A stretch of DNA of 64,000 nt from an uncultured Gammaproteobacteria bacterium (lineage in GTDB: Bacteria; Patescibacteriota; Microgenomatia; JAUYPR01): assembly GCA_964372495.1 (NCBI GenBank), contig CAYJQU010000001.1, forward strand, positions 2,935 through 66,934. The letters are read 5' to 3'. This document shows positions 1 to 58,692 of the stretch, piece by piece. Both the position numbers and the translations under genes were made by a program. The notes under the pieces were generated by a model, which was not told the DNA's origin, made no database searches, and was given only the letters and a program-made list of their open reading frames with translations. Every line of letters starts with the position of its first letter. The first letter of the stretch is position 1.

Positions 1-594
1 AAAGAGAAACTTATTCTATCGGTTGGCCGCTTTTTTACCGGACTGCATAATAAGAAACATGAAATACTCATTGAGGCTTTTAAACGATTACTACCTCTTG
101 AAAAGGATTCAACATGGCGATTGGTGCTAGCTGGCTCACTTAGCCCTGGTGAAGAAAATAGCGAGTACCTATCCCAACTGCGAGAGAGTGCGCGCGGCTT
201 TCCCATAGCGTTTGCGGTGGATGCACATTTTGGAGAACTTGCTGACTTGTATGGAAGATCGATGTTTTACTGGCACGCTGCCGGATTTGGCGAGGATGAG
301 CAGGAACACCCTGAGCGTTTTGAACATTTCGGTATTACCACGGTTGAAGCTATGGCTGCAGGGTGTGTGCCAATAGTCTTTAACGGTGGGGGACAGCGGG
401 AGATCATTCGCAACGGGCAGGATGGGTATTTGTGGGAAACAGTTGACGAATTAGTAACGATAACTCGCAGGGTTATACAAAATCAGAGTCTTAGAGAAAC
501 TTTTGCTAAGCGAGCGCGAGAAAGGAGCGTTGAGTTTGGGGAGAAAGTAGGGTGTGAGCAATTCAGACGTATTCTTGCCGAGGTGACCACATGA
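1..594 (+). CDS. Glycosyltransferase family 4 (GT-B fold), C-terminal part; 5' end lies outside the window
   Basis: Frame 1 is open from nt 1 (KEKLILSVGRFFTGLHNKKHEILIEAF...). The C-terminal GT4 signature EHFGITTVEAMAAGCVPIV is present (the E-x7-E region). Ends in an ATGA overlap with the next gene. Confidence 0.7.
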   Translation, partial: KEKLILSVGRFFTGLHNKKHEILIEAFKRLLPLEKDSTWRLVLAGSLSPGEENSEYLSQLRESARGFPIAFAVDAHFGELADLYGRSMFYWHAAGFGEDEQEHPERFEHFGITTVEAMAAGCVPIVFNGGGQREIIRNGQDGYLWETVDELVTITRRVIQNQSLRETFAKRARERSVEFGEKVGCEQFRRILAEVTT

Positions 595-2726
595 GGAAGG
601 ATATTCTGTCTTTCCTGTTCATAGTGCTCTATGTAGCTGTTCTATTCTATCCGGTGGCATTGGGCCGGATACCGTTTCCCGCCGATTCGCTGTTAGGACT
701 GTACCATCCGTGGCGTGACGTAGTATGGGATGGGTATACTGCGGGGGTTCCATACCGTAATTTTCTTACAACCGACCCGATGCGGCAAACCTACCCGTGG
801 CGAGAGCTCAGCATCGAACTATGGAAATCAGGAGAAATACCGCTGTGGAATCCTTACAGCTTCACCGGTACGCCGCTTCTTGCAAATTATCAGTCGGCGG
901 TGCTCTACCCACTCAATAGCATATTCTTGCTTGGGGATTTTGCTCGTATGTGGGCGGTCTTGATTCTCCTGACGCCATTACTGTCTCTCTCATTTTTCTA
1001 CCTTTGGATGCGCAGTCAAAGGATTGGGTCGCTAGCTTCAATCCTCGGCGCGGTAAGCTATGGGTTTGGCGGATTTATGATGGGGTGGATGACGTGGGGC
1101 ACTATCGGTCACGTTGCCGCGTGGCTGCCACTCATGCTCCTTGCCATGAACAAATGGTTTGCAAGACCTCAATTTCGCTGGCTTTTTATCTATCTTTTCG
1201 CATCAGTCAGTTCGCTGCTGGCAGGTCACCTCCAATCCGCTCTGTATGTTCAAGCGGTAACGCTGCTCTACGGCGTCGTCGTTGTGCAGAACGTACGGCG
1301 GGTGCTGCTACTTTTGGCCATTCCGATACTCCTGGCGAGTGTTCAGCTACTGCCGACTGTAGAATTTTTATTGCAGTCTGCACGCTCGCAAGACATAACA
1401 GGGCTGCACGGATTTTTGCCCTATAAGCACTTAGTGATGTTTTTGATTCCTGACTTTTTTGGAAATCCAGCAAAACTCAACTACTGGGGAGAATGGAACT
1501 ATCTAGAATTTAATGGCTACATAGGCTTAATTCCGTTATGGCTTGCATTGATTGCCGCAAGGAGTGTACGGACAAGGCTTGTTGCATTTGCCGCTTTGTG
1601 CGTTGGCCTGAGTTTACTTTTTGCGACAAGTAAACCCCTTGGGCAGGTGTTTTCTTTTGTGCAACAGGCAGGCGCATCTCGATTGCTGCTTGTTACCAAT
1701 TTTGGCCTTGCGGTTCTCGCCGGCCTTGGTATGCAGGAGCTGGGTAAGCGGACACAGAGGCACTTTGGCGCATATGGTTTTCTTGTCGGCCTCTTTGGGC
1801 TAGTAGGACTTTTTATACTCTTTGGTTTCGTTACCCGAGCTCCTTGGATACAGAATTTGGGGGTGAGTCTACGTAACAGCGTAGTTCCTATAGCGCTACT
1901 TATACTGATCGGTTGTATAATGCTACTTCGCCCCAAAATACCTAATCGCGCAGTACCCACGATACTAGCGTTCTTGCTTGTTGTTACCGCTTTTGATTTA
2001 GGGCGTTACTTTCTTACTTTTACCCCGTTCTCGCCTGTTTCGTGGATGTATCCGCCGACTCGAGTGCTTGCGTATCTGCAGGCTGATCCTGAGCCTTTTC
2101 GGATAATGGCAACCGACCGCCGTCTCTTGCCCCCAAATGTATCCGTCGCCTATCGCTTAGCATCGGTAGAAGGCTACGATCCTCTGTATCTATCCGATTA
2201 CGGCCGCTATATAGCCCGCAACGAGCAAGGCAGAAGCGATAATCTATCGCTCCAGTTCCATCGCATCATTACCCCACAGCGCATCGATATAGATTTACCT
2301 AACAAGCTAAACGCGAAATATGTTCTCAGCCTGTCTCCTTTAAACAGCGATCAGTTTAAACAAGTGGTTCAGGAAGGAGAAACGAGGTTGTATCACAATA
2401 CGCAAGCGCTGCCGCGTGTGGATATTGACAGAGGGAAGGCTCGGCTCATTCACTATGGGGCTAACAAGGTCAAAGTTGCAGTGAGTTCAGGCGAACCTGC
2501 GACCCTAGTGATGCGAGATCCAGCTACCTTCGGCTGGCATGCGAAGGTTGATAACGATGAGGCACCTATACAGAAGATAGACGGATGGTTTCGAGCGGTG
2601 AATATGCCGGCTGGCGACCATACGGTGACCTTCTCCTATTGGCCGAAAGGGCTGACCCTGGGTATCCTTGGTGCCGTATTTGGCATCGTGCTACTGGAAG
2701 TGGCATTGTGGAGAAAATATCTATGA
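591..2726 (+). CDS. YfhO-family polytopic membrane protein (GT-C-like glycosyltransferase)
   Basis: 711 aa. N-terminal pattern FPADSLLGLYHPWR...LWNPYSFTGTPLLANYQSAVLYP is typical of YfhO. Many TM segments. C-terminal region is shared with the other YfhO paralogs in this window. Confidence 0.8.
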   Translation: MRKDILSFLFIVLYVAVLFYPVALGRIPFPADSLLGLYHPWRDVVWDGYTAGVPYRNFLTTDPMRQTYPWRELSIELWKSGEIPLWNPYSFTGTPLLANYQSAVLYPLNSIFLLGDFARMWAVLILLTPLLSLSFFYLWMRSQRIGSLASILGAVSYGFGGFMMGWMTWGTIGHVAAWLPLMLLAMNKWFARPQFRWLFIYLFASVSSLLAGHLQSALYVQAVTLLYGVVVVQNVRRVLLLLAIPILLASVQLLPTVEFLLQSARSQDITGLHGFLPYKHLVMFLIPDFFGNPAKLNYWGEWNYLEFNGYIGLIPLWLALIAARSVRTRLVAFAALCVGLSLLFATSKPLGQVFSFVQQAGASRLLLVTNFGLAVLAGLGMQELGKRTQRHFGAYGFLVGLFGLVGLFILFGFVTRAPWIQNLGVSLRNSVVPIALLILIGCIMLLRPKIPNRAVPTILAFLLVVTAFDLGRYFLTFTPFSPVSWMYPPTRVLAYLQADPEPFRIMATDRRLLPPNVSVAYRLASVEGYDPLYLSDYGRYIARNEQGRSDNLSLQFHRIITPQRIDIDLPNKLNAKYVLSLSPLNSDQFKQVVQEGETRLYHNTQALPRVDIDRGKARLIHYGANKVKVAVSSGEPATLVMRDPATFGWHAKVDNDEAPIQKIDGWFRAVNMPAGDHTVTFSYWPKGLTLGILGAVFGIVLLEVALWRKYL

Positions 2727-3631
2727 CTGTTATTATTCCGACGTTTAACGGGAAAGAACTTTTAGCAAAAAATCTTCCTCGTATAGTCAAAGCTTCCTCT
2801 GGTGCAGTGGTGATCGTGGTAGACGATGGGAGCACTGATGGCACAGGCCACTGGCTCTCCCAATACTTTCCGAAAGTCGGGATTATTACCCATGCGCGTA
2901 ATCATGGTTTTGCAGCTGCAGTGAACGCAGGAGTGCAAGCTGCCACAACGGATATAGTGGTACTACTCAATAATGATGCGATACCTCACGAGGGGTGGCT
3001 AAAGGCGCTGTCAAGACATTTTGATGACCCATATGTCTTTGCGGTTGGGTGCAGGGAGGAAACAGGCGACGGAGAGAAACGGGTCGTAAGTGGTCGAGGA
3101 GTAGGATACTTTTATCGAGGAACTCTGACGCACGCGCGAGGTATAGAAGGACCCTTCACCCTGTGGGCAAGCGGTGGAAGTGCAGCTTTCTCACGGAGGA
3201 AATGGCGCGAACTGGGCGGAATGGATACACTGTACGCGCCGTTTTACTGGGAGGACATTGATCTCTCCTATCGGGCCTGGAAGAGAGGATGGAGAGTCCT
3301 GTATGAAAAACGAGCGATTGTGACACATGTACATGAGCAGACTATTGGACGCAGGTATTCGCCGTTTTTTATCCGGGTGGTTTCGAGTCGTAATCTCTAT
3401 CTCTTCTTCTGGAAGAATATTACAGACATACGGTTATGGGTGGCGCATCTGACGTGGCTCCCGCTCCACTTGAGTGCGGCGCTTCGGAGGCGGGATGGGG
3501 CATATATCGTAGGATTTCTCTGGGCATGCTGGTATATACCTCTGGTGTGCGTTCGTCGACTGGGAATAGCAAAAGCGACGCGAAGCGACCAGGAAGTAAT
3601 CACACTACATCGTAAGCAAGAGGTTCGATGA
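2723..3631 (+). CDS. Glycosyltransferase family 2 (WbbL/rhamnosyltransferase-like)
   Basis: MTVIIPTFNGKELL...VVDDGSTDGT and the DAIPHEGW and YWEDIDLSYRAWKRG motifs. The ATG overlaps the upstream stop (ATGA). The ORF-track N-terminal extension (2585) would overlap the upstream gene, so it was not used. Confidence 0.8.
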   Translation: MTVIIPTFNGKELLAKNLPRIVKASSGAVVIVVDDGSTDGTGHWLSQYFPKVGIITHARNHGFAAAVNAGVQAATTDIVVLLNNDAIPHEGWLKALSRHFDDPYVFAVGCREETGDGEKRVVSGRGVGYFYRGTLTHARGIEGPFTLWASGGSAAFSRRKWRELGGMDTLYAPFYWEDIDLSYRAWKRGWRVLYEKRAIVTHVHEQTIGRRYSPFFIRVVSSRNLYLFFWKNITDIRLWVAHLTWLPLHLSAALRRRDGAYIVGFLWACWYIPLVCVRRLGIAKATRSDQEVITLHRKQEVR

Positions 3632-5316
3632 TAGGTTTGGTGAGGAAAGGTGGATTGCCTCTCGTTCTGATACTGGTTCTTGCCGTTATACTGCGGTTTG
3701 CACTGCTTGCTACGTACCCCCCTGCACTTTTTGTGGACGAGGCTGCGGTCGGATACAACGCATGGTCTCTTGCGCAGGATCTGCGAGACGAATACGGCAC
3801 TTTTTTGCCAGTTGCATTCAGGTCTTGGGGCACCTATACTGCCCCACTCCAATTTTACCTAGCGATACCCGGCGTACTACTGTGGGGTTTAAATGAGTAT
3901 GGGACTCGGTTTCACGCAGTCCTGCTGGGATCGGCGACGGTTCTCGTACTCTACGTACTGGTGTACCAGTGGTTTGGAAAACGCACGCTGGCCCTTTCCG
4001 CCGCTACCCTGCTCGCACTCTCTCCATGGCATATCCATCAGTCCCGCATGGCGGTTGAGTCCATTATCAGCACTTTTTTCTTTACTCTCGGTGTCTATTT
4101 TCTTGTTCGTTTTCGTGCGGCTTATAAGCTCTTGCCACTCGTAGCGGCTGCTATTTGCTTTGTCTTGACTACATACGCGTACCACTCTGCCCGTTTGACC
4201 GCGCCTTTGTTTTTGTTTCTCTTTATGGTGCTGTATCGAAAGGAGTTGTGGCGGCAGCTGCGGAACGTTCTTATTGCCGCTTTAGTGGGTATTGTGATTG
4301 CATCACCGTTACTGTGGTATGTAATTACCCAACATAATCAAGCGCTGGCGCGGCCTCGTGCCATAAGTAGTATTGGTAATCCTGGTATCGGATTGCAGCT
4401 ATGGGAGTGGACTACAACTGATGGTCCGACTCACCCGTCCTTTTTGACCCGTGCCTTCCATAATAAAGCAGTGTTACATCTGGAGGATTTTTTCCGCCGA
4501 TATCTTTCTCATTTTGATCCCTCATTTTTGTTTATCAGAGGAGATCCACATGAGCGATTTCAAATTCCGAACATAGGCATTCTCTTGTTCATTGGTCTCC
4601 CACTAGTTTTGGTTGGGTTTTTGTCCCTATTTCGCTTTTATCCTGGCAAGGACAGATTATTACTTGTTGGCTGGATAATGCTTCCTCCTGTGGTTTCCTC
4701 ACTTGCGGTTATCACGCCGAATTCCTATCACATGCTCGAGGCAGCTCCTGCCTGGGCAATTCTGATGGCTATGGGTCTATCGATGTGGCTCCGTTTCCTC
4801 AAGCCTATACTGCCGTCCACTGCTCACATCGCTCTTGCATTACTGCTTACCGCCAATGTCTTGTATTATCTCGGGGTATATTACACGGTACTCCCCTATC
4901 AGTTGGCACACTTTTGGGCGTACGGTTTCAAAGAAGGTGTGCTTGCCGTAAAGGAGCTTGAGCGCGGGTACGATACAGTCGTATCGGCAAATCGGCACTA
5001 TATCTATTTTCTTTACTACCTCAGGTATAACCCAAGACGATTTCGTCTCGAGTATGAAAGGGCTCCCGGTGTTGATGAAAATGGATTTGAGCATATCGTT
5101 GCATTTGGCAAGTTTGTGTTTCCAAAAGACTTTAACTGGGAACAGATGCCAAAGCGTCCAGGTATCCTCTACATGGCACCACGCCATCAAATTCCCGACT
5201 ACTGGACGGATGACCCGGAAGGAAGTGGCCTGCGTCGCAACAAGGTTAGGATACTCAAGAAGATATACTTTCCCAACGGGGAGGTTGCGATGAAGGTAGC
5301 AGATGTTATTGAGTAA
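3628..5316 (+). CDS. PMT_2/ArnT-like GT-C membrane glycosyltransferase (GT39/GT83-like), paralog 1
   Basis: 562 aa. N-terminal TM, then loop motif FVDEAAVGYNAWSL...DEYGTFLPV, then SPWHIHQSR. Polytopic. ATGA overlap with the upstream gene. Confidence 0.75.
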   Translation: MIGLVRKGGLPLVLILVLAVILRFALLATYPPALFVDEAAVGYNAWSLAQDLRDEYGTFLPVAFRSWGTYTAPLQFYLAIPGVLLWGLNEYGTRFHAVLLGSATVLVLYVLVYQWFGKRTLALSAATLLALSPWHIHQSRMAVESIISTFFFTLGVYFLVRFRAAYKLLPLVAAAICFVLTTYAYHSARLTAPLFLFLFMVLYRKELWRQLRNVLIAALVGIVIASPLLWYVITQHNQALARPRAISSIGNPGIGLQLWEWTTTDGPTHPSFLTRAFHNKAVLHLEDFFRRYLSHFDPSFLFIRGDPHERFQIPNIGILLFIGLPLVLVGFLSLFRFYPGKDRLLLVGWIMLPPVVSSLAVITPNSYHMLEAAPAWAILMAMGLSMWLRFLKPILPSTAHIALALLLTANVLYYLGVYYTVLPYQLAHFWAYGFKEGVLAVKELERGYDTVVSANRHYIYFLYYLRYNPRRFRLEYERAPGVDENGFEHIVAFGKFVFPKDFNWEQMPKRPGILYMAPRHQIPDYWTDDPEGSGLRRNKVRILKKIYFPNGEVAMKVADVIE

Positions 5317-6952
5317 GGTGGTCACGCGTTCGTCGGCGCTAGTGGTGATTCTTAGTGCAGCCGTGATCCTCCGTTTTGTCGGCCTTGCAAACCATCCTCC
5401 TCTCTACACAGATGAGGCATCGCTTGGGTATAGCGCGTATAGTATTTTGCGCACCGGAGCCGATGAATTTGGACAGAAGTTGCCGGTCAGCCTCCGTTCA
5501 TTTGGCGATTACAAACCGCCGCTGTCGGCATATTTGATGATTCCGGGCATTGCCGCTTTTGGACTCTCAACGACTACCATTCGTTTACCATCGGCCATTA
5601 CTGGTATTGCCACCATCGTGCTCGTGTATTTACTCGTGAAGCTATTGACCGGGAACTCTGCGCTGGCACTTGGTAGCGCTTTTGTGCTGACATTTTCTCC
5701 TTGGCATATTCACCAGTCCCGTATGGCAATGCTTGTGGGTAACACACTCTTCTTTTTCGTGGCCGGGGTGTACACGTGGCTAAAGGGTGCGCGCGACCCG
5801 CGGTGGTATATCCTGAGTGCAATTTCCTTCGCACTGTCCATATATGGATACTATGGCATGCGTGTTGTCGTGCCGCTCATGCTGGGAGCGCTTGTGGTTT
5901 TATATCGTCGAGAGATTGTACGAGGGTGGCGATGGGCGGGCGGCTCGGCTGTTGTATTTATTGTCCTGCTGCTGCCCCTTACGATGCAATTTTTAGGCAA
6001 TAGCGAGGTGCTGTTTGGTAGAGCCCGACATGTGAGCCTGTTTGCTGATGAGGGTGTGCAGCTCAGACTGTGGGAGGCAGCAAGTACCGATGGGCAGCTG
6101 CACCCACTGGTAAGCAGGGTGTTTCACAACAAACTGATCGCGTATGCTGAGGATGCGGTGCGCAGGTTCTTTTCTCATTTTGAGATTGAGTATCTCTTTG
6201 TACGTGGAGACAGGGCTGAGCCTTTTGAGGTTCCAGGAATTGGCCTCTTGTGGCTGTTTGAGTTTCCGTTGGTGTTGGTTGGAATACACGCGCTGAGAAA
6301 GCATAAGAAATTACTACTGCTTGCCTTATTCTGGCTTGGCCTCCACGTATTACCGGCGGCCCTGACGTTTGTAACGCCTGCCTCAAATCGCAGTTTCGGT
6401 GCGGTCGTACCTCTTGCTATCTTTACGGGCGCAGGGGTAGCTGCAGTGGTTTCGAAAAAGCGTATGATACTTCCCTTGATACTACTGCTGTGGTTGGCGG
6501 GTTTAGTCTATGCCGCAAAACAGTATATAATCGTGCTCCCCCGTGATATAGGCCCGCGGGTATATAGTGCAAGCTTTGTGGGCGCAGACAAGCTGGCCGA
6601 GTATCGCAATCGGTATGACCGCATCGTGATTTCTGAACGGGCCAGACTTCCCTACGTACATCTATTGGTACGTTACCAATATGACCCGTGGCGGCTGCAG
6701 CAGGAATTACAGATTAAACCAGGAGTGGATCAGTTCGGCTATGAGCATGTGGACCGGTTCGGCAACATCCAGTACCGGCAGGACGTACTCTGGGAGCGAG
6801 AGAGGATCACCGGGACTACTCTCTATGTAGCGGCTCCACAGGAGGGATTGCCCCGCAGCGAATATCGTCCGAGAGTGCTTACAGAGATACGCTATGAATC
6901 GGGAGACCAGGCTATGCGATTTATCGAAGTGCAACCAATGGAATTAAAGTGA
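5303..6952 (+). CDS. PMT_2/ArnT-like GT-C membrane glycosyltransferase, paralog 2
   Basis: 549 aa. YTDEASLGYSAYSILRTGADEFGQKLPVSLRSFGDYKPP and SPWHIHQSR. Tandem to paralog 1. The start may alternatively be the GTG at 5318. Confidence 0.75.
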   Translation: MLLSKVVTRSSALVVILSAAVILRFVGLANHPPLYTDEASLGYSAYSILRTGADEFGQKLPVSLRSFGDYKPPLSAYLMIPGIAAFGLSTTTIRLPSAITGIATIVLVYLLVKLLTGNSALALGSAFVLTFSPWHIHQSRMAMLVGNTLFFFVAGVYTWLKGARDPRWYILSAISFALSIYGYYGMRVVVPLMLGALVVLYRREIVRGWRWAGGSAVVFIVLLLPLTMQFLGNSEVLFGRARHVSLFADEGVQLRLWEAASTDGQLHPLVSRVFHNKLIAYAEDAVRRFFSHFEIEYLFVRGDRAEPFEVPGIGLLWLFEFPLVLVGIHALRKHKKLLLLALFWLGLHVLPAALTFVTPASNRSFGAVVPLAIFTGAGVAAVVSKKRMILPLILLLWLAGLVYAAKQYIIVLPRDIGPRVYSASFVGADKLAEYRNRYDRIVISERARLPYVHLLVRYQYDPWRLQQELQIKPGVDQFGYEHVDRFGNIQYRQDVLWERERITGTTLYVAAPQEGLPRSEYRPRVLTEIRYESGDQAMRFIEVQPMELK

Positions 6953-8619
6953 GGTACGCGACACTTTGGCTGGTGGGCATTACGATGCTGGGAGCACTCG
7001 TGCGCCTTGCCTACCTTGGGGAGATACCTGCAGGGATAAACAATGATGAGGTGTCGCATGGCTACAATGCGTACAGTATTCTGACCACAGGGAAAGATGA
7101 GTGGGGTAAACCGTGGCCTATAACATCGTTTACCGCATTTGGCGATTACAAACCGCCGGTCTATATTTACCTCACGACAGTTTGGGTTTGGCTATTTGGT
7201 CTTTCTTCTTTTTCAACACGCCTTACATCGGCTCTGGCAGGCATCATTGCAATTCCCCTCGTATTTCTTCTTGTACAGAGGTTCTATGGCAACCGCGTGG
7301 TCGCTTTTATTGCAGCATTGTTTCTGGCGATTTCTCCCTACCATGTCTTTATAAGTCGCAAGGCTGCTGAAAACAACCTTGCGATAACATGGGCACTTGT
7401 GGGTACTTATGCGTTTGCTCGAGCACAAAAGCACGTGGCTTGGCTGTTTGCATCTATGGGGTTTTTCTTACTGATGGCATTTACGCACACCCCTGCTCGT
7501 GGCTTTGCCTTGTTGCTAGTTGCCTGTTTGCTTGTTTTGTATGGTAGGCCACTTTTTGTCCGAGAGAAGTGGAAAATGCTTGTCGCGGTGTCTCTTTTTT
7601 TCCTTCCCACGCTTTCTCTGTTTGCAAGCTGGGAGGGGCAGGCCAGATTGTATCAGAGTACGGAGTATGTTACTCGGGGCCTCTATGCTCGGTTGGATGA
7701 AACACGAGCTGCTTGCCAAAGCTTCGCTCCCCCTTCTGTTTGCCAAATTGCATTTAATAGGCCGACCGCCCGCGTGTGGGATGTACTGGAGAACTACGTA
7801 TCCCACTTTAGTACGAGAACGCTGTTTGTTATTGGTATTCGTAAGTTTGATGCTGGTGATTTGCGCGAACTTGATACGTATGTGTTATCAGGACATGGAC
7901 TATTTTATCTTTTTGGCTTGCCGCTGTTCTTCCTTGGCCTCTACTGCCTGGCACGACAGCTGACAAAGAAAAAAGGGCTGTTTTTGGCCTGGCTTTTGCT
8001 GTCTCCTATCCCTGACAGCTTAACTAGCCCAGGACATGCTAGTCGTATGACAACAATGATCCCCTCGATCGAGATTATCTGCGCGATTGGCTTATGGCAG
8101 TTGTCTGTTTGGATACGATATGTGCGTTTGAAAGCGCTACAGTATGTAGTATATTGTGTACTTGCGGCAGTAGTGGCTGTTAGTGTAACTCGTTTTTTAA
8201 TCACCTACCGCCATTACAGCGATTATGCCTCACGCGCGTTTAAGTTTGGCTACGCCGAGTTGTTTCAATATCTTTCAAACGTAGAGGATCGATATAATCG
8301 AATTTGGATATCCTCGTACTATGGGGAACCGTACATCTACCATCTCTTTTTTCAGCGCTACGCGGCAGACAAAATACATGATACGTCACATATTGACCGT
8401 GTCTGGGTTGCTGATGATCAAGCAGGCGTTTGGTCGCAGGTTTCTCGTATTGGCAAGTACCGGTATGTTTCAGAAGTGGAAGCAAAGGATGTAGGTCTGT
8501 CTGACTTGGTTGTAAATGGCCCGTTTGGTGGTCCGAGGGACGGCAATCTTTTACATGTGGTGCGCGATAAACGTGGCGACGGTGTATTCTATATTTATGA
8601 AGCAAAGCAACGAAACTAA
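6949..8619 (+). CDS. PMT_2/ArnT-like GT-C membrane glycosyltransferase, paralog 3
   Basis: 556 aa. NNDEVSHGYNAYSILTTGKDEWGKPWPITSFTAFGDYKPP and SPYHVFISR. GTG start overlapping the upstream stop (GTGA). Confidence 0.75.
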   Translation: MRYATLWLVGITMLGALVRLAYLGEIPAGINNDEVSHGYNAYSILTTGKDEWGKPWPITSFTAFGDYKPPVYIYLTTVWVWLFGLSSFSTRLTSALAGIIAIPLVFLLVQRFYGNRVVAFIAALFLAISPYHVFISRKAAENNLAITWALVGTYAFARAQKHVAWLFASMGFFLLMAFTHTPARGFALLLVACLLVLYGRPLFVREKWKMLVAVSLFFLPTLSLFASWEGQARLYQSTEYVTRGLYARLDETRAACQSFAPPSVCQIAFNRPTARVWDVLENYVSHFSTRTLFVIGIRKFDAGDLRELDTYVLSGHGLFYLFGLPLFFLGLYCLARQLTKKKGLFLAWLLLSPIPDSLTSPGHASRMTTMIPSIEIICAIGLWQLSVWIRYVRLKALQYVVYCVLAAVVAVSVTRFLITYRHYSDYASRAFKFGYAELFQYLSNVEDRYNRIWISSYYGEPYIYHLFFQRYAADKIHDTSHIDRVWVADDQAGVWSQVSRIGKYRYVSEVEAKDVGLSDLVVNGPFGGPRDGNLLHVVRDKRGDGVFYIYEAKQRN

Positions 8620-9316
8620 CAAGCGGACAGTATCGTTGGTATTTCCGGCATTTAACGAGGAGGCCAATATTGCCCAGGCGATTGCCGAGTTTAAGAGGGC
8701 CCATCGGTTTGACGAAGTTGTAGTAGTCGATAATAACTCAACGGATGCAACGGTAAAGCTTGCGCAAGCGCATGCCCGAGTTATGAAGGAGGAGAGACAA
8801 GGATTTGGGTGGGCGGTACGTCGAGGGCTGGCTGAGGCGCGAAGTGAGCTTATTGTCCTTGCCGAACCGGACGGCACATTTGTTGGGAGAGACGTGCATA
8901 AGCTGTTGGCGTACGCGGACGATTTTGACCTGATAATTGGGACGCGCACTACAAAGGAGCTTATTTGGGGGGAGGCGAATATGGGATGGTTCTTGCGAAT
9001 TGGAAATATAATAGTTGCCAAGTTCATTGAGGTATTGTTTTCCGGTCCCTCGCTATCAGATTGTGGTTGCACGCTGCGCCTTATTAGGCGGGACGCTCTT
9101 GGCAAAATAGCACCATATTTTACTGTGGGAGGGTCGCATTTTCTTCCTGAGATGGTGATACTGGCTCTTCAGCATAACTTGCGGGTAATCGAGATACCAG
9201 TTAACTACCGCACGAGGATAGGCGCTTCAAAAATTACTGGTTCCACCTGGCGCGCGTTTTGGGTTGGTATAGGTATGATTACCCTTGCACTCCGTTGCAG
9301 GCTATTTGGCAGATGA
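8597..9316 (+). CDS. GT2 polyprenyl-phosphate sugar synthase (Dpm1/DPM-synthase-like)
   Basis: MKQSNETNKRTVSLVFPAFNEEANI...VVVDNNSTDAT...AEPDGT. This is the typical Dpm1/ArnC/GtrB architecture. The in-frame ATG at 8597 overlaps the upstream gene by about 23 nt. Confidence 0.7.
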   Translation: MKQSNETNKRTVSLVFPAFNEEANIAQAIAEFKRAHRFDEVVVVDNNSTDATVKLAQAHARVMKEERQGFGWAVRRGLAEARSELIVLAEPDGTFVGRDVHKLLAYADDFDLIIGTRTTKELIWGEANMGWFLRIGNIIVAKFIEVLFSGPSLSDCGCTLRLIRRDALGKIAPYFTVGGSHFLPEMVILALQHNLRVIEIPVNYRTRIGASKITGSTWRAFWVGIGMITLALRCRLFGR

Positions 9317-51692: not shown

Positions 51693-53006
51693 TTAATGTC
51701 GTGCTAAGAACTCGGTTACAACGTCGGCAACATAGTTTCGTTCTTGCTTTCCAATCCCCGGCCAGACGCCGATGAAGAATGTGTCTTCGAGTATTTTGTC
51801 TGAATTGGTGAGCTCGCCAACGACGCGGTGAGGGATATTACGATACGGTGCATGCCGTAGAATGTTTCCTGCAAAGAGTGAGCGAGTCTCGACCAGATGC
51901 TCTTCAAGATACAGGGTAATATCTCTTCGAGAAAATGGCGCGCCATCTTTAATAGTGAGGGGGAAGCTGAACCAGCAAGGATCGGCTTTTGGCAGCGACC
52001 GCGGGAGTATGAAATAATCTTCATACTTTTTGAATAATTGATAAAAGAATTCAAAATTTTCTCTTCTTTTTTTCACAAATTCAGGAAATCGGTCCAGTTG
52101 CACAAATCCCATTGCGGCTTGTACCTCCGTAGGTTTGAGGTTAAAGCCTATATTGGCGAACATATACTTGTGGTCCGCGGGATGCCCGTTAATGAGGAAA
52201 CCAAATCGATTATTGCAAGCTCCCATGGGGTTTTGCTCAGTTGATTTGCAGTAGCATGCCCGTCCCCAATCCCTCAATGAGAGAGCAGTCTTGTACAACC
52301 GTTCGTCGCTGACGAACACGGCTCCTCCTTCGCCAGCTGTTGTCATATGATGTGCAGGGTAGAATGACTCAGTAGCCAGAATGCCGAAACTTCCCGTTTT
52401 TTTGCCCGCATACTCCGATCCAAGAGCATCGCAATTATCTTCAATCAGGAGCAACGCGTGTTCCTTGCACAGACGCGTAAGTGTGTCCATGGCGTTTGGG
52501 TTTCCAAGTGTATGCGGGACAAAGATGGCCTTTGTTTTGCGACCGATGGCGTCTGAAAACTTCTCGGCAGGTATGTTTAAGGTGTCGAGTGCAACATCCA
52601 AAAAGACTGGTGTAAGTCGGTAAAAAAGGAGTGGATTTACGGTAGTTGGAAACGTGCAGGCTGGTGTAATGACCTCGTCACCCTCACGAAGTCCCCAGGA
52701 GAAATTTGGTGACGAGAGGGTAGCAATGGCAAGCAAGCTTGCCGATGAACCACTATTAGTAAGAAGTGCTTTCGGCACTCCTATATAGGAAGCAAGTTTT
52801 TTTTCTAGTTGTTCGCCTAAGGATCCGAGTCCAAACCACCCGTCTAGTATCGCGGTAACCATCGCCGTTACTTCCTGTTCGCCATAGTAGGCACCCGCAT
52901 AGCGGACGCGGGTTTTTCCCGGTATGAATTGGCGCATCTCCTGTTGGTGAGCGACGTATTGCTGGATGAGTGTAAGCAAGCGTTTTTTTATGGTATCGCC
53001 CTTCAT
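51693..53006 (-). CDS. DegT/DnrJ-fold PLP/PMP enzyme, CDP-4-keto-6-deoxyglucose 3-dehydrase (RfbH/DdhC, E1)-like
   Basis: 437 aa. LRDWGRACYCKSTEQNPMGACNNRFG...HKYMFANIGFNLKPTEVQAAMGFVQLDRFPEFV. The Cys cluster after DWGR and the overall pattern resemble RfbH/E1 rather than a plain aminotransferase. Confidence 0.65.
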   Translation of the reverse strand: MKGDTIKKRLLTLIQQYVAHQQEMRQFIPGKTRVRYAGAYYGEQEVTAMVTAILDGWFGLGSLGEQLEKKLASYIGVPKALLTNSGSSASLLAIATLSSPNFSWGLREGDEVITPACTFPTTVNPLLFYRLTPVFLDVALDTLNIPAEKFSDAIGRKTKAIFVPHTLGNPNAMDTLTRLCKEHALLLIEDNCDALGSEYAGKKTGSFGILATESFYPAHHMTTAGEGGAVFVSDERLYKTALSLRDWGRACYCKSTEQNPMGACNNRFGFLINGHPADHKYMFANIGFNLKPTEVQAAMGFVQLDRFPEFVKKRRENFEFFYQLFKKYEDYFILPRSLPKADPCWFSFPLTIKDGAPFSRRDITLYLEEHLVETRSLFAGNILRHAPYRNIPHRVVGELTNSDKILEDTFFIGVWPGIGKQERNYVADVVTEFLARH

Positions 53007-54005
53007 TTAGTTGGCCCAGTAGTGGGATTTGTATTGGCGATAGAAGGTAATCGTCTTTGCGAGCCCTTCCGTAAGTGGTGTTCTGGGCTTCCAGCCAGAG
53101 ATAGAGTGAAACTTTTGGTAATCACCGATATAGTCTCCGCTTTCGATCTTTCTGCGCTCCTCAGTGTACTCCTTGTATTCAATGCGTCCACTTTTGGCGA
53201 TTTCAATGGCTTGTTGAACGAACGCAACGAGTGATACTCCCTGGTTACTACTTATCACGAATGCATTCCCTTCTGCCTCAGGGATACTGGCTGAAAGCAG
53301 GAATGCGTGTGTTGCGTCGTCTACGTGTAGAAAATCACGCAGCTGCTTGCCATTTCCGAAGATTGGTACTGCTTCGTCATCAATGATCAGGCGGAGAAAG
53401 AAGTTTTGTACGCCGTATTTTGTATGCTGCATCTGGTGTCGATGACCGTAGATATTGGTGAGGCGCAAACTGACAGCTCTGAGCCCACAGATGCGACGGT
53501 AAATAAAGTGATAGTGCTCACCGGCGATTTTATGTGCGCCATATATGTCGATTGGTTCCATCGGAGTTTCTTCGGTAACTGGCAGTGCAGCAGGAACCCC
53601 ATACTGTGCTCGAGACCCAGCGTACACTACCAACACATGCGGATTAACCTCGCGACAGGCTTCTAGCAGTGTAAGCTGGCCACGACAGTTTATATCGAGG
53701 TCTAGGTAGGGATCTTTCATGCTATCGACATGGCTTGTTTGTGCTGCGATGTTAAAAATAATGTCCTTTTCTTTAACAGCTTTTTGTATTGCCTCGCGGT
53801 CACGTATGTCTCCCGTGATGAAGTGTACGCGATCCCTGATCTCCTCTATATTAAAAAGATTCCCCCCGTACCCTGGTAGGAGCGCGTCATAAAGGGTTAC
53901 ATCTGCCTTAAATTCGATAAGGGCTTGGGCAAGATTACTTCCTAGAAAACCTAGTCCGCCAGTAATAAGAATCTTCTTTCCCGGGAAGAATTGTGTTGGA
54001 TTCAC
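53007..54005 (-). CDS. NAD(P)-dependent sugar epimerase/dehydratase (extended SDR)
   Basis: ILITGGLGFLGSN (Rossmann) and the YGAHK catalytic YxxxK. Immediately upstream of the RfbH-like gene with no intergenic gap. Confidence 0.75.
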   Translation of the reverse strand: MNPTQFFPGKKILITGGLGFLGSNLAQALIEFKADVTLYDALLPGYGGNLFNIEEIRDRVHFITGDIRDREAIQKAVKEKDIIFNIAAQTSHVDSMKDPYLDLDINCRGQLTLLEACREVNPHVLVVYAGSRAQYGVPAALPVTEETPMEPIDIYGAHKIAGEHYHFIYRRICGLRAVSLRLTNIYGHRHQMQHTKYGVQNFFLRLIIDDEAVPIFGNGKQLRDFLHVDDATHAFLLSASIPEAEGNAFVISSNQGVSLVAFVQQAIEIAKSGRIEYKEYTEERRKIESGDYIGDYQKFHSISGWKPRTPLTEGLAKTITFYRQYKSHYWAN

Positions 54006-54025
54006 GAGCCAATTGTATCAAATTT

Positions 54026-54847
54026 CTATTGACGCGGCCGTTTTGTAGCTACCACAAAGATGTTAGCTCTGAAATCAGAATCGCTTCGGATGTACGAGGC
54101 AAGTGGGCGGAACAGTTTTACGCGTGTGCCTCTTGCAAATACCCTTCTAGTTCCATACAAGATTTTATACAGTTGGGAGGGTACCGAGAACGGTAATCCA
54201 AGTTCAAATAACATCAGCATCCTGGGAGTAATCGTTCCAGAAACTGACTCGATGGTGAATCCCGCGTTCTTGGCTAAAGCTAGCCATCTTCTTTCCGACG
54301 GGAGAAATACGTGCTTGAACGCTTTGTTAATAGCCCTATAGTAGAGGTGGGCAAGTGGCTCAAGGCTTAGCGCTCGTAGGATTTTTACCATGAGCAGTCC
54401 TGAGTACAACTGGTTAGTAGGCACTGAGAAGTAAAAACGGCCGCCCAGCTTTAGTATTCGATATACCTCCTGAAACACACGTTCATTGTTGGGTATATGT
54501 TCAAGTGTGCTGATAGAAATAACAGTGCCAAAACTTCGTGCTTTGAATGGTAAGTCTCGAGCGTCGGCTACAATGGTCTTGCGATATTTTCCGCAAGAGG
54601 TGGCATGGAGTATCTCTTTTGGACTAATATCAAGACCCACTTCAACTTGCGAGGAAAAAAACACACCGCCAAATTCACCAAAGCCACAACCAATATCGAG
54701 CACTGGTTTCGTGAGTCTATGCTTAGCCAGCTCTTGCGCTTCACCGGAGCGCCAAATGGCAAGTGACAGTGGAGCTATTCGTAGATACCTCTCAAAGTAC
54801 ACTGAGCTTGCAGTTGGTAGCGTCTCTTTGGATAATGTGGTAGTCAT
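54026..54847 (-). CDS. Class I SAM-dependent methyltransferase
   Basis: VLDIGCGFGEFG, FGTVISISTLEHI, LGGRFYFSVP. Confidence 0.7.
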   Translation of the reverse strand: MTTTLSKETLPTASSVYFERYLRIAPLSLAIWRSGEAQELAKHRLTKPVLDIGCGFGEFGGVFFSSQVEVGLDISPKEILHATSCGKYRKTIVADARDLPFKARSFGTVISISTLEHIPNNERVFQEVYRILKLGGRFYFSVPTNQLYSGLLMVKILRALSLEPLAHLYYRAINKAFKHVFLPSERRWLALAKNAGFTIESVSGTITPRMLMLFELGLPFSVPSQLYKILYGTRRVFARGTRVKLFRPLASYIRSDSDFRANIFVVATKRPRQ

Positions 54848-56454
54848 CGTCGGCGGAGGCTGCCTAGCAGAAGAGAACCGGCCATTCCCAGGGAGGAAAC
54901 AAGCGAGATGTTGTTACCAAGTTGGCGCAGGGGTGTTTCCGTGAATCGAAGCGTCAACGTATACGTGCCGGCTGGTATCACAGAGGTTATCATACCAGAG
55001 GGCTCAATGGGAATCTCTGTACCGTTTCTCGTCAGTCGCCATCCTGGGAAGTTGAGGATGGAGAACTGTATGTGCGAGTCTGTGGCGACGTTGGCAGACA
55101 ATTTTGCATTAGCGGCTTTCCGGTCTGTGAGCAGTAGGGTTGCATCCCCTGAGAGAACCTTTGCAAATTCTTTGGGTGTATTGTTTGCATGTTGCGGCGC
55201 GCCCTTTGGTAGAAGATACACGTCAAGCTTTTTCGGATCGTAGAAGGATTGATAATACTGTGTATCTTGGTGATGCCAGCCATGCCCTGATGAATAGTGC
55301 CTACTGGGTGTAATAGCCAGTATCACAAGTAGTAAAAATAGTACCGTTGGTAAGCGAACATGGGAAATTGTGTACGCTGCCAAAAAGCTAGTAACGAACG
55401 TAGTAAGAGTAAGAAACCGCCATGGGAAAAGAAGGGTGCGCAAGGGTGACACATTATCCCACAGAAATTTACTGTAGGTAGTTATAAGGAATATCGCAGC
55501 AATGCTGAGGAGTGCGCCAAACAGTGGTACGACAGGGACACTCCGCCGTCGCAGCAAGATCAAAGAGCATGCCGAAAACCCGGCAAGCAGGAATATACTT
55601 TGGGTGAGACCAACTTGAATTCCAGTGCCAATCGGTTTGCCAATGATCGGAAAGTGAACTAACTGGGCCAGTGGCAGAAGGTGACCCTCATAAATGGAGA
55701 AGTACGTTTTCTCAAGTTCTACATACTGTTGTTCAAACACCATAGGAAACCACTGATAAGCGGCAAGCAAAAAGCCAAGAGCCGTCGAAACGCAATAAAG
55801 GAAGATAGCGCTGCGCTGTTTGTGGAGAATGTAAAAAGCGTACAGAAGTGCAATGGGTAGAAATATCATGAGGGTCAACGCGTGCGTGGTGATAAAACCA
55901 AAGAAAATGAGTGCCGAAAAAATAATCCATTTATGGTCTCCCCCGCGGAGTTTGTGTGGAGTGAGGAAAAGGAGCGGAATAAAAATGAACGAAAGTGCCT
56001 CTCCGAGAGCTCCACGTTCGTATAGATCCGCAAGCCGATAGGGAGCACTTATATAAACGATGGAACCGAAGAGGGCAGTCTTTTGGAAAAAATAGGTTCT
56101 CAGAAATGCAAAGCAGGTAATTCCAGAAAGTGCGGTGGAGGCAAAAAGGAGCAGTTTAAATATCGACTCAAAATCGAGGTATGTGGCCAGGTGAATAAAC
56201 GCTCCGATGTAGTATGGCAAACTGTAGTTGTATACGAACGTCGGATACCCATAGCCAAAGTACCAGTTGTCGAGCCAGCGAACGGGAACATGACCTTCCT
56301 GTAATGCCTTTGTGAATTGCGCAAGTCGCGCAATGTGGATTGTGCCGTCATGCGATGTAAAGACTCCTGGAGTTAGGAGGTTGCTTGCAAGGATAAAAGA
56401 GATTATTACGATTAGTATCTGCGGCCAGTAGTGAAAACGGCGAGGCCTCTTCAT
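54844..56454 (-). CDS. Divergent YfhO-like polytopic membrane protein
   Basis: N-terminal FTSHDGTIHIARLAQFTKAL...VPVRWLDNWYFGYGYP and C-terminal LNFPGWRLTRNGTEIP. Paralog of the 26210 and 40347(-) genes. Confidence 0.6.
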   Translation of the reverse strand: MKRPRRFHYWPQILIVIISFILASNLLTPGVFTSHDGTIHIARLAQFTKALQEGHVPVRWLDNWYFGYGYPTFVYNYSLPYYIGAFIHLATYLDFESIFKLLLFASTALSGITCFAFLRTYFFQKTALFGSIVYISAPYRLADLYERGALGEALSFIFIPLLFLTPHKLRGGDHKWIIFSALIFFGFITTHALTLMIFLPIALLYAFYILHKQRSAIFLYCVSTALGFLLAAYQWFPMVFEQQYVELEKTYFSIYEGHLLPLAQLVHFPIIGKPIGTGIQVGLTQSIFLLAGFSACSLILLRRRSVPVVPLFGALLSIAAIFLITTYSKFLWDNVSPLRTLLFPWRFLTLTTFVTSFLAAYTISHVRLPTVLFLLLVILAITPSRHYSSGHGWHHQDTQYYQSFYDPKKLDVYLLPKGAPQHANNTPKEFAKVLSGDATLLLTDRKAANAKLSANVATDSHIQFSILNFPGWRLTRNGTEIPIEPSGMITSVIPAGTYTLTLRFTETPLRQLGNNISLVSSLGMAGSLLLGSLRRR

Positions 56455-56460
56455 GTTCTA

Positions 56461-57996
56461 CTATGGTAGCCGCGCTATCTGATGGTAGCTGATCGTTAAG
56501 CGAGTGTGTTCGTTTATACGTAAGGCAGTTAGGGTACAGCAGGGTCCGAGGCGAATTATTTGTTTTTGATCGTCCACTACCCATTCAGAAAATTGGTTTT
56601 CGAAAAAGACGATTGTCCTGACGTTGCTGGGAAGTAAAAATGAATCCTGCGGACGCTCGAAGCGGCTCGTGCGATTGTTGTATGTGGTGAAAACCTTATT
56701 TTGTACTAAGCTCCCCTGTCTTGAGACATCTTCAAACACATAGACCTGAAAATATGGGAGGAAATAGGCTGCATGCCTCCATTGTCTATGATCGCTCACA
56801 ATCAGTGTGGTCTGTGAATTAAAGGTTTCGCGAATGTAGCCAATTTTGGATTCGAATAAGCGATCGTTTGCGCGGATACTTGCGTATCCCAAGTATTGTG
56901 GCCGGTCTGAATCTAGATCACGAAAGAAGAAATGTGTATTGAACACTACGACAACTGAAAGTGTTGCGCTTAATATGAGCTTACGGCCATTTTCATTGAT
57001 GAGGCTATGGGCACTGTGGTCAATAAAGTATGCCAGGAGAATTGTTGCGGGGAGAAGAAGCGCAAGGGTATGAGCTGGGTGGTCAGACTTAAGGAAGACT
57101 TGAAAAAGAGCAATAGGCACCACCCATAGACTGAAAAAGAGCAACCGTGCTCTGTTGAGTGGAAGTGAGTACCTGCCGGTTCGGATTCTCGCAAGGACTG
57201 CATAAAGCACCGGATACGAATAGAATAGGAGTGCTATGGTAAATGCGCTCATGAAGCTGACAGCGAGTGTAGTGGCATAAAATTTTGTGTTGGCGATACC
57301 CGGTGGCTGCAAATCAGTAGCTGCCCTTAGTAACAGACCGAGGTAGCCAGCTATTCCTCCAGTAATGGACAGTAGCGGAATTATCCACATGAGGCAAAGA
57401 AGAAATGTTGTGAGCACTACTCGTTTTTTCTCGTGAGGAGTAATGATGCCTAGGTAGTACAAAAGGGGAAGTCCCACGTTTATGATTTCGTGCGGGCGTA
57501 TGCCCAACAAGATAGTCAGGGAGAGCGGTAGTAAAAAAAGGTGACTACGTCCCTTCCATCTGGCCTCCGCAATGCACCAGATTACTGTTGCATGGAAGAA
57601 TAACGCCACGATATATGGGAGGGCCACAATCCCAAAGAACCAAAAAGTAGTAGAGGTAAGAAAGAGAAGAGATGCAATAAAACCTGTTCTGCTGTTGCAT
57701 ATTGCCCTTCCAATCAGAAACGTGAGTAGTGCTACCCCAGCACTAAAAAGGACAGATAAGAAGGTAAGCGTTTGCAATGGACCTCCAATGAGTGGGACCA
57801 ATAGTCTACCTGTCATTACGTACAGGAAGTAGCCGGGGAATCCAGGCTCGTTGTTTGGAATATCGTAGACGATAAGGCCGCGAGCGTATCCAATACTGTC
57901 TGAAACTATGGGAAACCGCTCTTGCGTAATAAAGCGGAGGATAAAGGTAGTAGCAAACATGCACAGTGCAAACAGAGCAATGCGAGAGAAATGCAT
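56461..57996 (-). CDS. Polytopic membrane protein, GT-C-like (divergent)
   Basis: 511 aa, about 12 TM segments, N-terminal loop after TM1. Sits within the GT2 / GT-C / YfhO-like operon on the - strand. Confidence 0.5.
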   Translation of the reverse strand: MHFSRIALFALCMFATTFILRFITQERFPIVSDSIGYARGLIVYDIPNNEPGFPGYFLYVMTGRLLVPLIGGPLQTLTFLSVLFSAGVALLTFLIGRAICNSRTGFIASLLFLTSTTFWFFGIVALPYIVALFFHATVIWCIAEARWKGRSHLFLLPLSLTILLGIRPHEIINVGLPLLYYLGIITPHEKKRVVLTTFLLCLMWIIPLLSITGGIAGYLGLLLRAATDLQPPGIANTKFYATTLAVSFMSAFTIALLFYSYPVLYAVLARIRTGRYSLPLNRARLLFFSLWVVPIALFQVFLKSDHPAHTLALLLPATILLAYFIDHSAHSLINENGRKLILSATLSVVVVFNTHFFFRDLDSDRPQYLGYASIRANDRLFESKIGYIRETFNSQTTLIVSDHRQWRHAAYFLPYFQVYVFEDVSRQGSLVQNKVFTTYNNRTSRFERPQDSFLLPSNVRTIVFFENQFSEWVVDDQKQIIRLGPCCTLTALRINEHTRLTISYHQIARLP

Positions 57997-58002
57997 GTCT
58001 CT

Positions 58003-58692
58003 TTAACCTTTCAATGCGTTATGTAGCAGTAGTAACTCCTTGGGTGAACGAATGATGCGTTCCATTATGGACGACACGGGCGTTCGTTGTTCTGCAACAG
58101 TTACAGGAAGTTCTTTGATACGAAAGCTTTGGCGCTCGGCGCGGATCATGAGTTCTGTGTCAAATAGCTCGTGGAAGTCTCGGCAGGCTTCAGCAAGTTT
58201 CTTCGCAACAGCAGTTCGCATGAGCTTCAAGCCGTGAGTGTCTGACCCCCGATATCCGAAAGCATGTTTAAGGAGGAGTGTAAACAGGATTGTAATAAAC
58301 CTTCTCCACAATGGTCGTTTGTCGTGTGATCCCTTGAGCGTTTTTGAACCAGTGATGATGTCATAGTTGTCTACGGAAGCCAGTGCGGCTTTTAGGAAAG
58401 CCAGATCGTAGTAATCGACATTGAAGATAGCCACCAAATCGGTACGCGTATGTTTAATTCCTTCTTTCAAAGCGATGCCGTATCCAGCGCTGCTTAGTAC
58501 TATGGTTTTGATAAGGGGGTTTCTAGAGGCCTCCCTCTGTGCGATCTCGCGTGTTGCGTCAGTGCTTCCGTTTTCTATGATCAGAATGTTTGGTTTAATC
58601 GGCTGTAAGCCTTTTTCGATTCTGCGAATGGAGCGGGCAAGTAGAAGCTCTTCGTTGTGGGTTGGTAGAAGAATAGTAAGCGACTGCTGCAT
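58003..58692 (-). CDS. GT2 polyprenyl-phosphate sugar synthase (Dpm1-like)
   Basis: LTILLPTHNEE...ILIIENGSTDAT...NVDYYDL. Confidence 0.7.
   Translation of the reverse strand: MQQSLTILLPTHNEELLLARSIRRIEKGLQPIKPNILIIENGSTDATREIAQREASRNPLIKTIVLSSAGYGIALKEGIKHTRTDLVAIFNVDYYDLAFLKAALASVDNYDIITGSKTLKGSHDKRPLWRRFITILFTLLLKHAFGYRGSDTHGLKLMRTAVAKKLAEACRDFHELFDTELMIRAERQSFRIKELPVTVAEQRTPVSSIMERIIRSPKELLLLHNALKG

Follow-up and report, generated by a model that had tools for sequence, protein, structure and literature searches.

Nineteen GT-C-type membrane glycosyltransferases in a probable surface-glycan island of a Microgenomates-group bacterium

In this work we analysed a stretch of 64,000 nucleotides of contig CAYJQU010000001.1 (assembly GCA_964372495.1, positions 2,935 to 66,934; hereafter the window) and found that all of its 19 polytopic membrane open reading frames (ORFs) encode glycosyltransferases (GTs) of the GT-C type. 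We consider it probable, at roughly 70%, that the window forms the central part of a very large surface-glycan island, lipid-carrier-dependent and largely extracytoplasmic, in a bacterium of the Microgenomates group within the candidate phyla radiation (CPR). The original prediction, made from the DNA letters, had counted 19 such proteins in 64 kb, and Pfam, BLASTP, hhalign and fold comparison together confirmed every one of them. The count was even slightly too low, since a 20th gene lies just upstream. The 19 ORFs occupy 33,045 of the 64,000 bases (51.6%) of a window that holds about 53 genes and is 98.3% coding, and a hydropathy scan of their products gave about 6-16 hydrophobic segments for each.

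Sixteen of the 19 proteins score above the Pfam gathering thresholds, four as YfhO, ten as PMT_2 and/or PMT, and two as PTPS_related. The YfhO members g02, g11, g12 and g13 match PF09586 over their full length with 67-101 bits (threshold 28.5 bits). The first of them, g02 (591-2726, + strand; 711 aa; 72.5 bits), is 27-29% identical to the other three, which stand in tandem at 11992-19260 (+; approximately 808, 790 and 826 aa; 98.8, 100.9 and 67.4 bits). The PMT_2/PMT matches comprise g04, g05, g06, g09, g15, g16, g18, g25, g32 and g34. Six of these (g04, g05, g09, g16, g25 and g34) also exceed the threshold of 22.7 bits for PMT (PF02366), and g06 stays slightly under it with 21.5 bits. Seven form a set of paralogues, made up of the tandem g04, g05 and g06 (3628-8619, +; 562, 549 and approximately 544 aa; pairwise identity 29-35%), the shorter g09 (10155-11423, +; 422 aa; PMT_2 46.9 bits), g15 and g16 (20730-23977, +), and g25 (31564-33183, +). 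An additional weak match to the STT3 N-terminal model was seen for g15. The remaining three are without a paralogue in the window, namely g18 (24698-26134, - strand; 478 aa; PMT_2 34.4 bits), g32 (the first gene within 38913-43381, +) and g34 (41948-43381, +). PTPS_related (PF10131) is matched by g33 (40347-41933, -) and g46 (54844-56454, -).

The division into four sets that had been proposed was reproduced, with seven PMT_2 paralogues, five further GT-C proteins (g14, g18, g32, g34 and g47), four YfhO proteins and three divergent YfhO-like proteins, the last being the PTPS_related group (g19, g33 and g46). Among solved structures, ArnT (5EZM/5F15) comes closest to the PMT_2 group by sequence (E 4.7e-6, for a match of only about 170 residues), and searches of the PDB sequences with the g14 and YfhO profiles gave no match. 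Pfam found no domain for acceptor binding, such as MIR or TPR, in any of the 19 proteins. We therefore did not file them as PMT (GT39) in the strict sense, for which a MIR domain in loop 5, as in eukaryotic PMTs, or demonstrated Ser/Thr acceptors on proteins would be expected.

Three proteins have no Pfam match above threshold. The first, g19 (26210-27910, +), has none at all, and was assigned to the PTPS_related group through BLASTP matches to g33 (E 5e-36) and g46 (E 2e-39). Aligned together, g19, g33 and g46 match an alignment of 19 YfhO sequences with an hhalign probability of 99.5%, which agrees with the placement of PTPS_related and YfhO in the GT-C clan of Pfam. The second, g47 (56461-57960, -), shows a TMEM260-like match only, below the Pfam threshold. 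Its family profile is similar to that of the PMT_2 group of the window (hhalign 95.9%, E 6e-9, 386 columns). An exhaustive HMMER search yielded 1,243 cluster representatives related to g47, and among 35 that were sampled, 27 match PMT_2 and 18 match the TMEM260-like model.

The third protein, g14 (19329-20654, -; 441 aa), has no Pfam or NCBIfam family, and together with its 26 homologues it gave no consistent match to either collection. There is also no profile similarity between this family and the PMT_2 group of the window (hhalign probability 1%). In AlphaFold models, g14 and g47 fold into helical bundles, and for both of them ArnT is the closest solved structure by fold. The matches of the g14 model in the fold comparison were exclusively GT-C proteins, and it is because of this comparison only that g14 was placed among them. 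We had also considered g14 as the missing flippase or polymerase of the Wzx/Wzy type, or as a transporter, and rejected this since no fold other than GT-C was matched. Judged by the models, g14 represents a family of membrane proteins with the GT-C fold for which neither Pfam nor NCBIfam has an entry. Its homologues are 42-56% identical and better conserved than the other GT-C proteins of the window, and the only named one is labelled Curtissbacteria. In two other contigs (L088 10001-11344 and L089 10001-11326) the g14 orthologue lies divergent from a PTPS_related gene and an unannotated protein of approximately 450 aa.

The family assignments are accompanied by a conserved acidic residue in the first extramembrane loop. 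Directly after the first transmembrane segment, six of the seven PMT_2 paralogues share the motif x-D-E-[AV]-x-x-G-Y-[NS]-A-[WY]-S in the alignment, so that the DE pair which had been predicted for all seven holds for six; g09, which has HE, is considered below. The pair is present in g04 (VDEA), g05 (TDEA), g06 (NDEV), g15, g16 and g25, as well as in g18 (MVDES) and g34 (PDE), and the corresponding motifs are HD in g32 and QDG in g33. In g47 the motif is SD, with D33 invariant in 35 relatives; D36 is invariant in the PTPS_related trio, and the YfhO group shows no variation in D63 or in an LWNP motif among 19 homologues. Altogether, 17 of the 18 GT-C proteins other than g14 have a conserved Asp after the first transmembrane segment. 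The conserved acidic residues of g14, D133 and D169, are located after several N-terminal helices.

The GT-C genes are interleaved with genes for putative donor synthases. Four short GT2 proteins of 224-239 aa without transmembrane segments (g07, g17, g29 and g48) are matched best, among the NCBIfam models, by AglJ, dolichyl-phosphate hexose transferase or PpgS, and the predicted number of four Dpm1-like synthases holds. For g07 (8597-9316, +; 239 aa) the scores are 84, 73 and 49 bits, respectively, and for g17 (23974-24693, +; 239 aa) they are 69, 67 and 57 bits. The PpgS-like g29 is found at 35749-36423 (+), and g48 (58003-58692, -) is the first gene of a minus-strand module. These short GT2 genes stand beside GT-C genes at four places (g06-g07-g09, g16-g17-g18, g25...g29 and g48-g47-g46). 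In addition, the YfhO gene g02 is directly followed by g03 (2723-3631, +), a GT2 protein with one predicted hydrophobic segment near its C-terminus. This arrangement is similar to the yfhO-csbB pairing of Gram-positive bacteria, and the best NCBIfam matches of g03 are proteins other than CsbB, GtrB or ArnC.

Enzymes for cytoplasmic glycan assembly and for the supply of sugars make up much of the rest. According to Pfam there are nine GT4 and four other GT2 enzymes, in accordance with the approximately 13 cytoplasmic GTs originally proposed. They include g26 and g27 (GT2) and g28 and g30 (GT4) in the segment g26-g31 (33180-38923, +), which also holds g29 and the nucleoside-diphosphate-sugar dehydratase/epimerase g31, and six GT4 and one GT2 in the segment g35-g42 (43317-51641, +), together with one methyltransferase. 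The five methyltransferases that had been counted are g08, g38, g45, g49 and g51, and only three of them are inside 591-58692, the part to which that count referred.

Two nucleotide-sugar pathways had also been expected, and both can be recognised. The genes g20-g24 (27928-31563, +) encode a GmhA-like isomerase, an HddC-like nucleotidyltransferase, an HddA-like kinase, a GmhB-like phosphatase and a second nucleotidyltransferase. By its best NCBIfam matches, all of them below the equivalog cut-offs, and by its Pfam matches, the set looks like a pathway for a GDP-D-glycero-D-manno-heptose-like sugar. The second pathway belongs to the minus-strand module (51693-58692), in which the order of transcription is g48, g47, g46, the methyltransferase g45, the 4,6-dehydratase g44 and the RfbH-type 3-dehydrase g43. 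With 525 bits, g43 scores above the RfbH equivalog cut-off of 423, and together with the adjoining g44 (the pair at 51693-54005, -) it suggests that this CPR bacterium makes a 3,6-dideoxyhexose. RfbI/E3, the reductase that would partner g43, was not seen in the window.

From these parts a pathway can be proposed. Local enzymes would make unusual nucleotide sugars, that is, a GDP-heptose-like sugar and a 3-deoxygenated 6-deoxyhexose. The nine GT4 and four GT2 enzymes would build or extend a lipid-linked glycan at the cytoplasmic face of the membrane, and the four short Dpm1/AglJ/PpgS-like GT2 proteins would load single sugars onto polyprenyl phosphate. A flippase would then turn the lipid-linked sugars over, and the 19 GT-C enzymes (20 with the upstream gene) would transfer the sugars at the outer face, each to a particular position of an envelope glycoconjugate. 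The use of polyprenyl-(di)phosphate sugars as donors at the outer face is suggested by the family membership of the GT-C proteins and by the adjoining Dpm1-like GT2 genes. We infer the identity of the donors, the topology, the flipping step and the acceptor, and likewise whether a single product or several would result. The general reading is the best available because sugar supply, synthase-like GT2 proteins and GT-C transferases are all present and interleaved. The word "combinatorial", which the original prediction had used, appears reasonable for such a gene layout. Of the lipid-carrier-dependent extracytoplasmic island that it envisaged, the family assignments and the interleaving of the three parts stand, and the mechanism keeps its conditional form, with neither a flippase nor a priming enzyme among the genes seen.

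Several observations weigh against this reading. All evidence comes from the comparison of sequences, profiles and models, and this does not indicate one shared product for the 19 enzymes. The four short GT2 proteins all fall below the curated NCBIfam cut-offs, the highest score being that of g29 against PpgS (154.7 bits, cut-off 370), and a lipid phosphate as their acceptor is a guess from the best matches. In g09 the canonical Asp is replaced by His (N-H-E at the first-loop site), which may mean that the protein is inactive or that it follows another mechanism. None of the window ORFs of at least 150 aa matches a Pfam family of flippases (GtrA/GtcA, SMR, MATE or Wzx), and when the window was searched by tblastn with Wzx proteins of relatives and a GtrA-fused GT2, GT2 domains were the only matches. 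Since 98% of the window is coding, there is no room in it for an extra flippase gene; a flippase may be encoded elsewhere on the parent contig, which measures 208,451 bp and was identified by exact protein matches. A priming phosphoglycosyltransferase, a Wzy polymerase, a ligase or an ABC exporter could not be recognised in the window either, and its gene content is not that of a Wzx/Wzy- or ABC-dependent O-antigen or capsule locus. Related CPR loci do contain Polysacc_synt genes of the Wzx type. Finally, the window encodes no identifiable candidate for the acceptor.

As to the nature of this acceptor, CPR cells are described as having no outer membrane (PMC7906910 and PMC6744442), and as carrying a periodic surface layer and pili (PMC7906910). 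Because the outer membrane is missing, lipid A is ruled out, and a wall polymer, a lipoglycan or surface proteins are the more likely acceptors. Genes for teichoic-acid synthesis were not seen in the window.

The cluster is not confined to this organism. A scan with g12 alone found no close relative among the GTDB species representatives, and a scan of contigs with the YfhO alignment gave more than 580 relatives. Among the best 78 of these loci, nearly all that are named belong to Microgenomates-group CPR bacteria (Levyibacteriota, Gottesman-, Woese-, Shapiro- and Chisholmbacteria, and "Patescibacteria group"). Judged by the genomes that contain its nearest homologues, the source of the window is most probably a metagenome-assembled genome of this group. 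Many third-party metagenome-assembled genomes that carry the same gene families are titled "uncultured Gammaproteobacteria" or "uncultured Pseudomonadales" (loci L012-L016, L023, L026, L030 and others), and several clusters with the Gammaproteobacteria title lie on contigs of 0.6-0.95 Mb. These titles look like placeholder or mistaken taxonomy.

For a census of density, the ORFs of 61 related loci of at least 15 kb were searched with the 19 window proteins; the loci had been picked for a YfhO gene, so that the figures hold for the neighbourhoods of YfhO genes rather than for entire genomes. The density of GT-C homologues in them has a median of 0.27 and a maximum of 0.45 per kb, compared with 0.30 per kb in the window. 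At least five homologues were found in 50 of the 61 loci, at least seven in 17 and at least nine in five, and a complete Levyibacteriota chromosome of 762 kb (CP066685.1) has 13 GT-C genes between 345 and 399 kb. The density of the window is thus locally typical of the lineage, but here it is held over 64 kb. Because related loci have a similar density, the GT-C island is no exception within its lineage but a typical case. The number of GT-C genes, which had been called exceptional, is so in comparison with characterised loci, but such numbers are the norm in Microgenomates.

The GT-C paralogues of the window are old. They are only 21-38% identical to each other by BLASTP, and for 13 of the 17 proteins with any phmmer match in the sampled loci, the best match in another genome outscores the best paralogue in the window; g14 and g47 had no match there. 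The exceptions are g11 and g13, which are 38% identical to each other, and g18, g32 and g34 have no paralogue in the window for such a comparison. Low identity within the window and closer orthologues elsewhere show an old, differentiated repertoire, and on the same grounds a recent tandem duplication was ruled out. Even the closest relative that was found has orthologues of no more than 55% identity. In the closest locus (L009), g12 is only 43% identical, and the order g12-g15-g16 is kept.

These comparisons also bear on the strongest alternative, in which the window would be a set of three-component modules of the serotype-conversion type, independent of one another and serving for decoration. 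In each of them a synthase would serve one to three GT-C enzymes that add a side-branch to a polymer made elsewhere, and the number of genes would reflect diversifying selection by phages or hosts and frequent exchange of modules, and not one assembly line. The layout is modular in this sense, with a short GT2 by a GT-C gene at four places, and related loci differ widely from one another in gene order and in the GT-C families that they contain. The divergence of the orthologues and the absence of the backbone machinery (priming enzyme, Wzx and Wzy) from the window would fit as well. However, old paralogues, of which 13 out of 15 that can be compared within the window have closer orthologues in other genomes, fit poorly with a rapid turnover of recent cassettes, the GC content is uniform, and mobile-element genes are absent among the window ORFs. 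Moreover, with about four synthases for 19 GT-C proteins, most of the latter would have to share donors. We therefore regard this explanation as unlikely, though it deserves to be taken seriously.

An expanded system of protein O-glycosylation seems less probable still. Here the PMT_2, PMT and TMEM260-like enzymes would each modify different secreted or surface proteins, such as pilins, sortase-anchored proteins or components of the surface layer, in parallel to animal POMT/TMTC/TMEM260 or actinobacterial Pmt. Eleven of the proteins are matched by PMT, PMT_2 or TMEM260-like models and carry a first-loop motif with Asp, Microgenomates are described as rich in sortase and pilins (PMC6744442), and the pili and periodic surface layer of CPR cells mentioned above would offer targets. 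The PMT_2 model is broad, however, and includes ArnT-like lipid and glycan transferases; the nearest structure by sequence is indeed ArnT, and the absence of MIR and TPR domains also speaks against protein targets. Seven of the 19 proteins belong to the YfhO or PTPS_related families, and characterised YfhO members act on teichoic acids. In addition, 13 cytoplasmic GTs and pathways for rare sugars point to a complex glycan. Both alternatives differ from the favoured reading, that of a lipid-carrier-dependent surface-glycan island, in the acceptor and in the organisation of the steps, and not in the chemistry.

An artefact, with membrane proteins that are mostly transporters or polymerases or a contig joined from unrelated fragments, was suggested by the missing or sub-threshold Pfam matches of g14, g19 and g47 and by Logan contigs that end at approximately 5.6, 26.8 and 58.9 kb, but it is already refuted, since profile and fold evidence places all three proteins in GT-C, independent contigs are 99.8-99.97% identical to the window, its composition is uniform, ORFs run through the break points, and the same type of cluster is present on complete CPR chromosomes. 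The contigs in question come from two sequencing runs. Logan contigs of run ERR3478686 match the window at 1-5555, 5621-26787 and 58862-64000 with 99.8-99.9% identity, a further contig of this run has a gene order identical to that of g39-g48, and 59399-62387 is matched at 99.97% identity by a contig from another run, ERR4904391. The genes g05 and g49 are in frame through the break points, and GC stays between 0.42 and 0.51 along the entire window. A chimeric assembly, which the original prediction had named as one way in which it could fail, was ruled out by the even GC and the matching contigs; a majority of transporters or O-antigen polymerases was the other, and the profile searches gave GT-C instead.

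Systems in which GT-C enzymes work with donor synthases are known from several organisms. The three-component glycosylation systems are defined in PMC11127046, which also provides the mycobacterial parallel. They include GtrA/GtrB/Gtr* of Shigella and Salmonella, CsbB/GtcA/YfhO for lipoteichoic acid in Bacillus and Listeria, and the GT136 pentofuranose system. The window resembles them in the synthase-like GT2 genes beside GT-C genes, in the YfhO member beside a GT2 (g02-g03) and in the conserved first-loop Asp. It differs in scale, with 19-20 GT-C proteins and about four synthases instead of one of each, in the absence of a GtrA, SMR or MATE flippase from the window, and in its CPR host, for which relatives suggest a genome of approximately 1 Mb.

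To our knowledge, the only well-studied bacterial precedent for more than ten GT-C enzymes in one envelope pathway is the synthesis of lipomannan, lipoarabinomannan and arabinogalactan in mycobacteria and corynebacteria. There, many GT-C enzymes (PimE, MptA/B/C, EmbA/B/C and AftA-D, with Ppm1 and decaprenyl-phosphoryl-arabinose as the sources of donors) work one after another on a single glycoconjugate outside the membrane, with polyprenyl-phosphate monosaccharides as donors. The families in the window are others, namely PMT_2, YfhO, PTPS_related and one that Pfam and NCBIfam do not recognise, whereas members of the GT87, MptA_B or Emb type have no Pfam match there. A tblastn search of the window with MptA_B proteins of relatives found none either, and MptA_B/GT87-type genes are present in the loci of those relatives. 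Moreover, the window has 0.30 GT-C genes per kb, whereas the mycobacterial genes are spread over a genome of 4 Mb, and it lacks a DprE or phosphoribosyl-pyrophosphate-type donor pathway.

The same two-phase logic, cytoplasmic GT4/GT2 enzymes followed by GT-C enzymes, is found in the lumenal ALG pathway of the endoplasmic reticulum (ALG3, 9, 12, 6, 8 and 10, with Dpm1 and Alg5 and the cytosolic ALG1/2/11). No protein of the window is a member of the ALG families at the sequence level, and there is no clear oligosaccharyltransferase, the weak STT3 match of g15 being the only indication. The resemblance is one of design and not of common descent. The ArnT/ArnC system, which modifies lipid A with aminoarabinose, is comparable in that ArnT is the nearest structure to the PMT_2 group and that weak ArnA- and ArnD-like genes occur at 62.3-64.0 kb, but a CPR bacterium has no lipid A, and these ArnA- and ArnD-like matches are far below the equivalog cut-offs.

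The GT-C gene upstream shows that the island extends beyond the window. It is of the PMT_2 type, lies directly upstream of position 1 on an overlapping Logan contig (L006 1-1830, -) and matches g06 with E 6e-55. It is followed upstream of the window by a methyltransferase gene and by a GT4 gene whose 3' end corresponds to 121-594 of the window. On the other side (L007 5100-12646), genes for NeuB, a NeuC-like Epimerase_2 protein, an ATP-grasp enzyme, a DegT aminotransferase, a carbamoyltransferase and a methyltransferase were found. As annotated, this set indicates a nonulosonic-acid pathway and an island that runs on past position 64000. Near the end of the window, the gene for a formyltransferase, which weakly resembles Fmt and ArnA, stands beside that for a polysaccharide deacetylase, which weakly resembles ArnD (both within 62299-63983, -), a pair that suggests a formylated amino sugar.

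Some further features of the window may be mentioned. The HIT-family protein g10 (11405-11899, +) is encoded between GT-C genes, with the same position on a Logan contig (L001), and may act on nucleotide sugars or sugar phosphates. Between methyltransferase genes lies g50 (59612-61507, +), a soluble protein of 631 aa without a Pfam or NCBIfam match, the DNA of which has a 99.97% identical copy in the second run, ERR4904391 (L008). The sole sizeable non-coding gap, 362 bp at 36424-36785, is located upstream of the GT4 gene g30. It contains three weak sigma-70-like matches, compared with about one expected from shuffled sequences, and no terminator was found in it; an internal promoter region may be located there. 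Scans of the window for Rfam families and for tRNAs gave no match.

In the literature that we searched there is no description of a GT-C expansion in CPR bacteria. Many families enriched in Microgenomates are reported as membrane "hypotheticals" in PMC6744442, in which the string "glycosyl" does not occur. PMC7906910, in which "glycos" is likewise absent, describes the nature of the CPR cell envelope as an open question. For a Saccharibacterium, glycolipids similar to phosphatidylinositol mannosides have been proposed on the basis of GT87 and three Dpm copies (PMC6031116). In the present case, every component comes from a known superfamily, and what is unusual is the scale and density in a genome of probably about 1 Mb, besides a g14 family that is absent from Pfam. 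This striking feature is common to the whole lineage and is not unique to the window.

Members of the CPR are organisms with tiny genomes that are unable to synthesise lipids or nucleotides of their own. Nevertheless, half of this 64-kb region is spent on GT-C enzymes and most of the remainder on the supply of sugars. If the proposed reading is true, the surface of Microgenomates would carry an elaborate glycoconjugate with heptose, 3,6-dideoxyhexose and probably nonulosonic acids, which would have a bearing on host recognition, phage defence and the detection of Microgenomates cells. The island also brings divergent GT-C enzymes, the g14 family among them, densely together with the donor synthases to match, as a natural library which could serve structure-function work on GT-C enzymes as well as glycoengineering. 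A bolder view, which goes further by analogy and which we hold as tentative and rather doubtful, is that Microgenomates build their main envelope glycoconjugate mostly outside the membrane by an assembly line of approximately 20 differentiated GT-C enzymes, including the family of g14 for which Pfam has no model, in a manner comparable to mycobacterial lipoarabinomannan and arabinogalactan synthesis or to the lumenal ALG pathway. Such an assembly line would take up more than 60 kb of a genome of approximately 1 Mb; as a trait of the whole lineage that has so far escaped description, it would define the CPR envelope and would probably be one of the determinants of attachment to the host.

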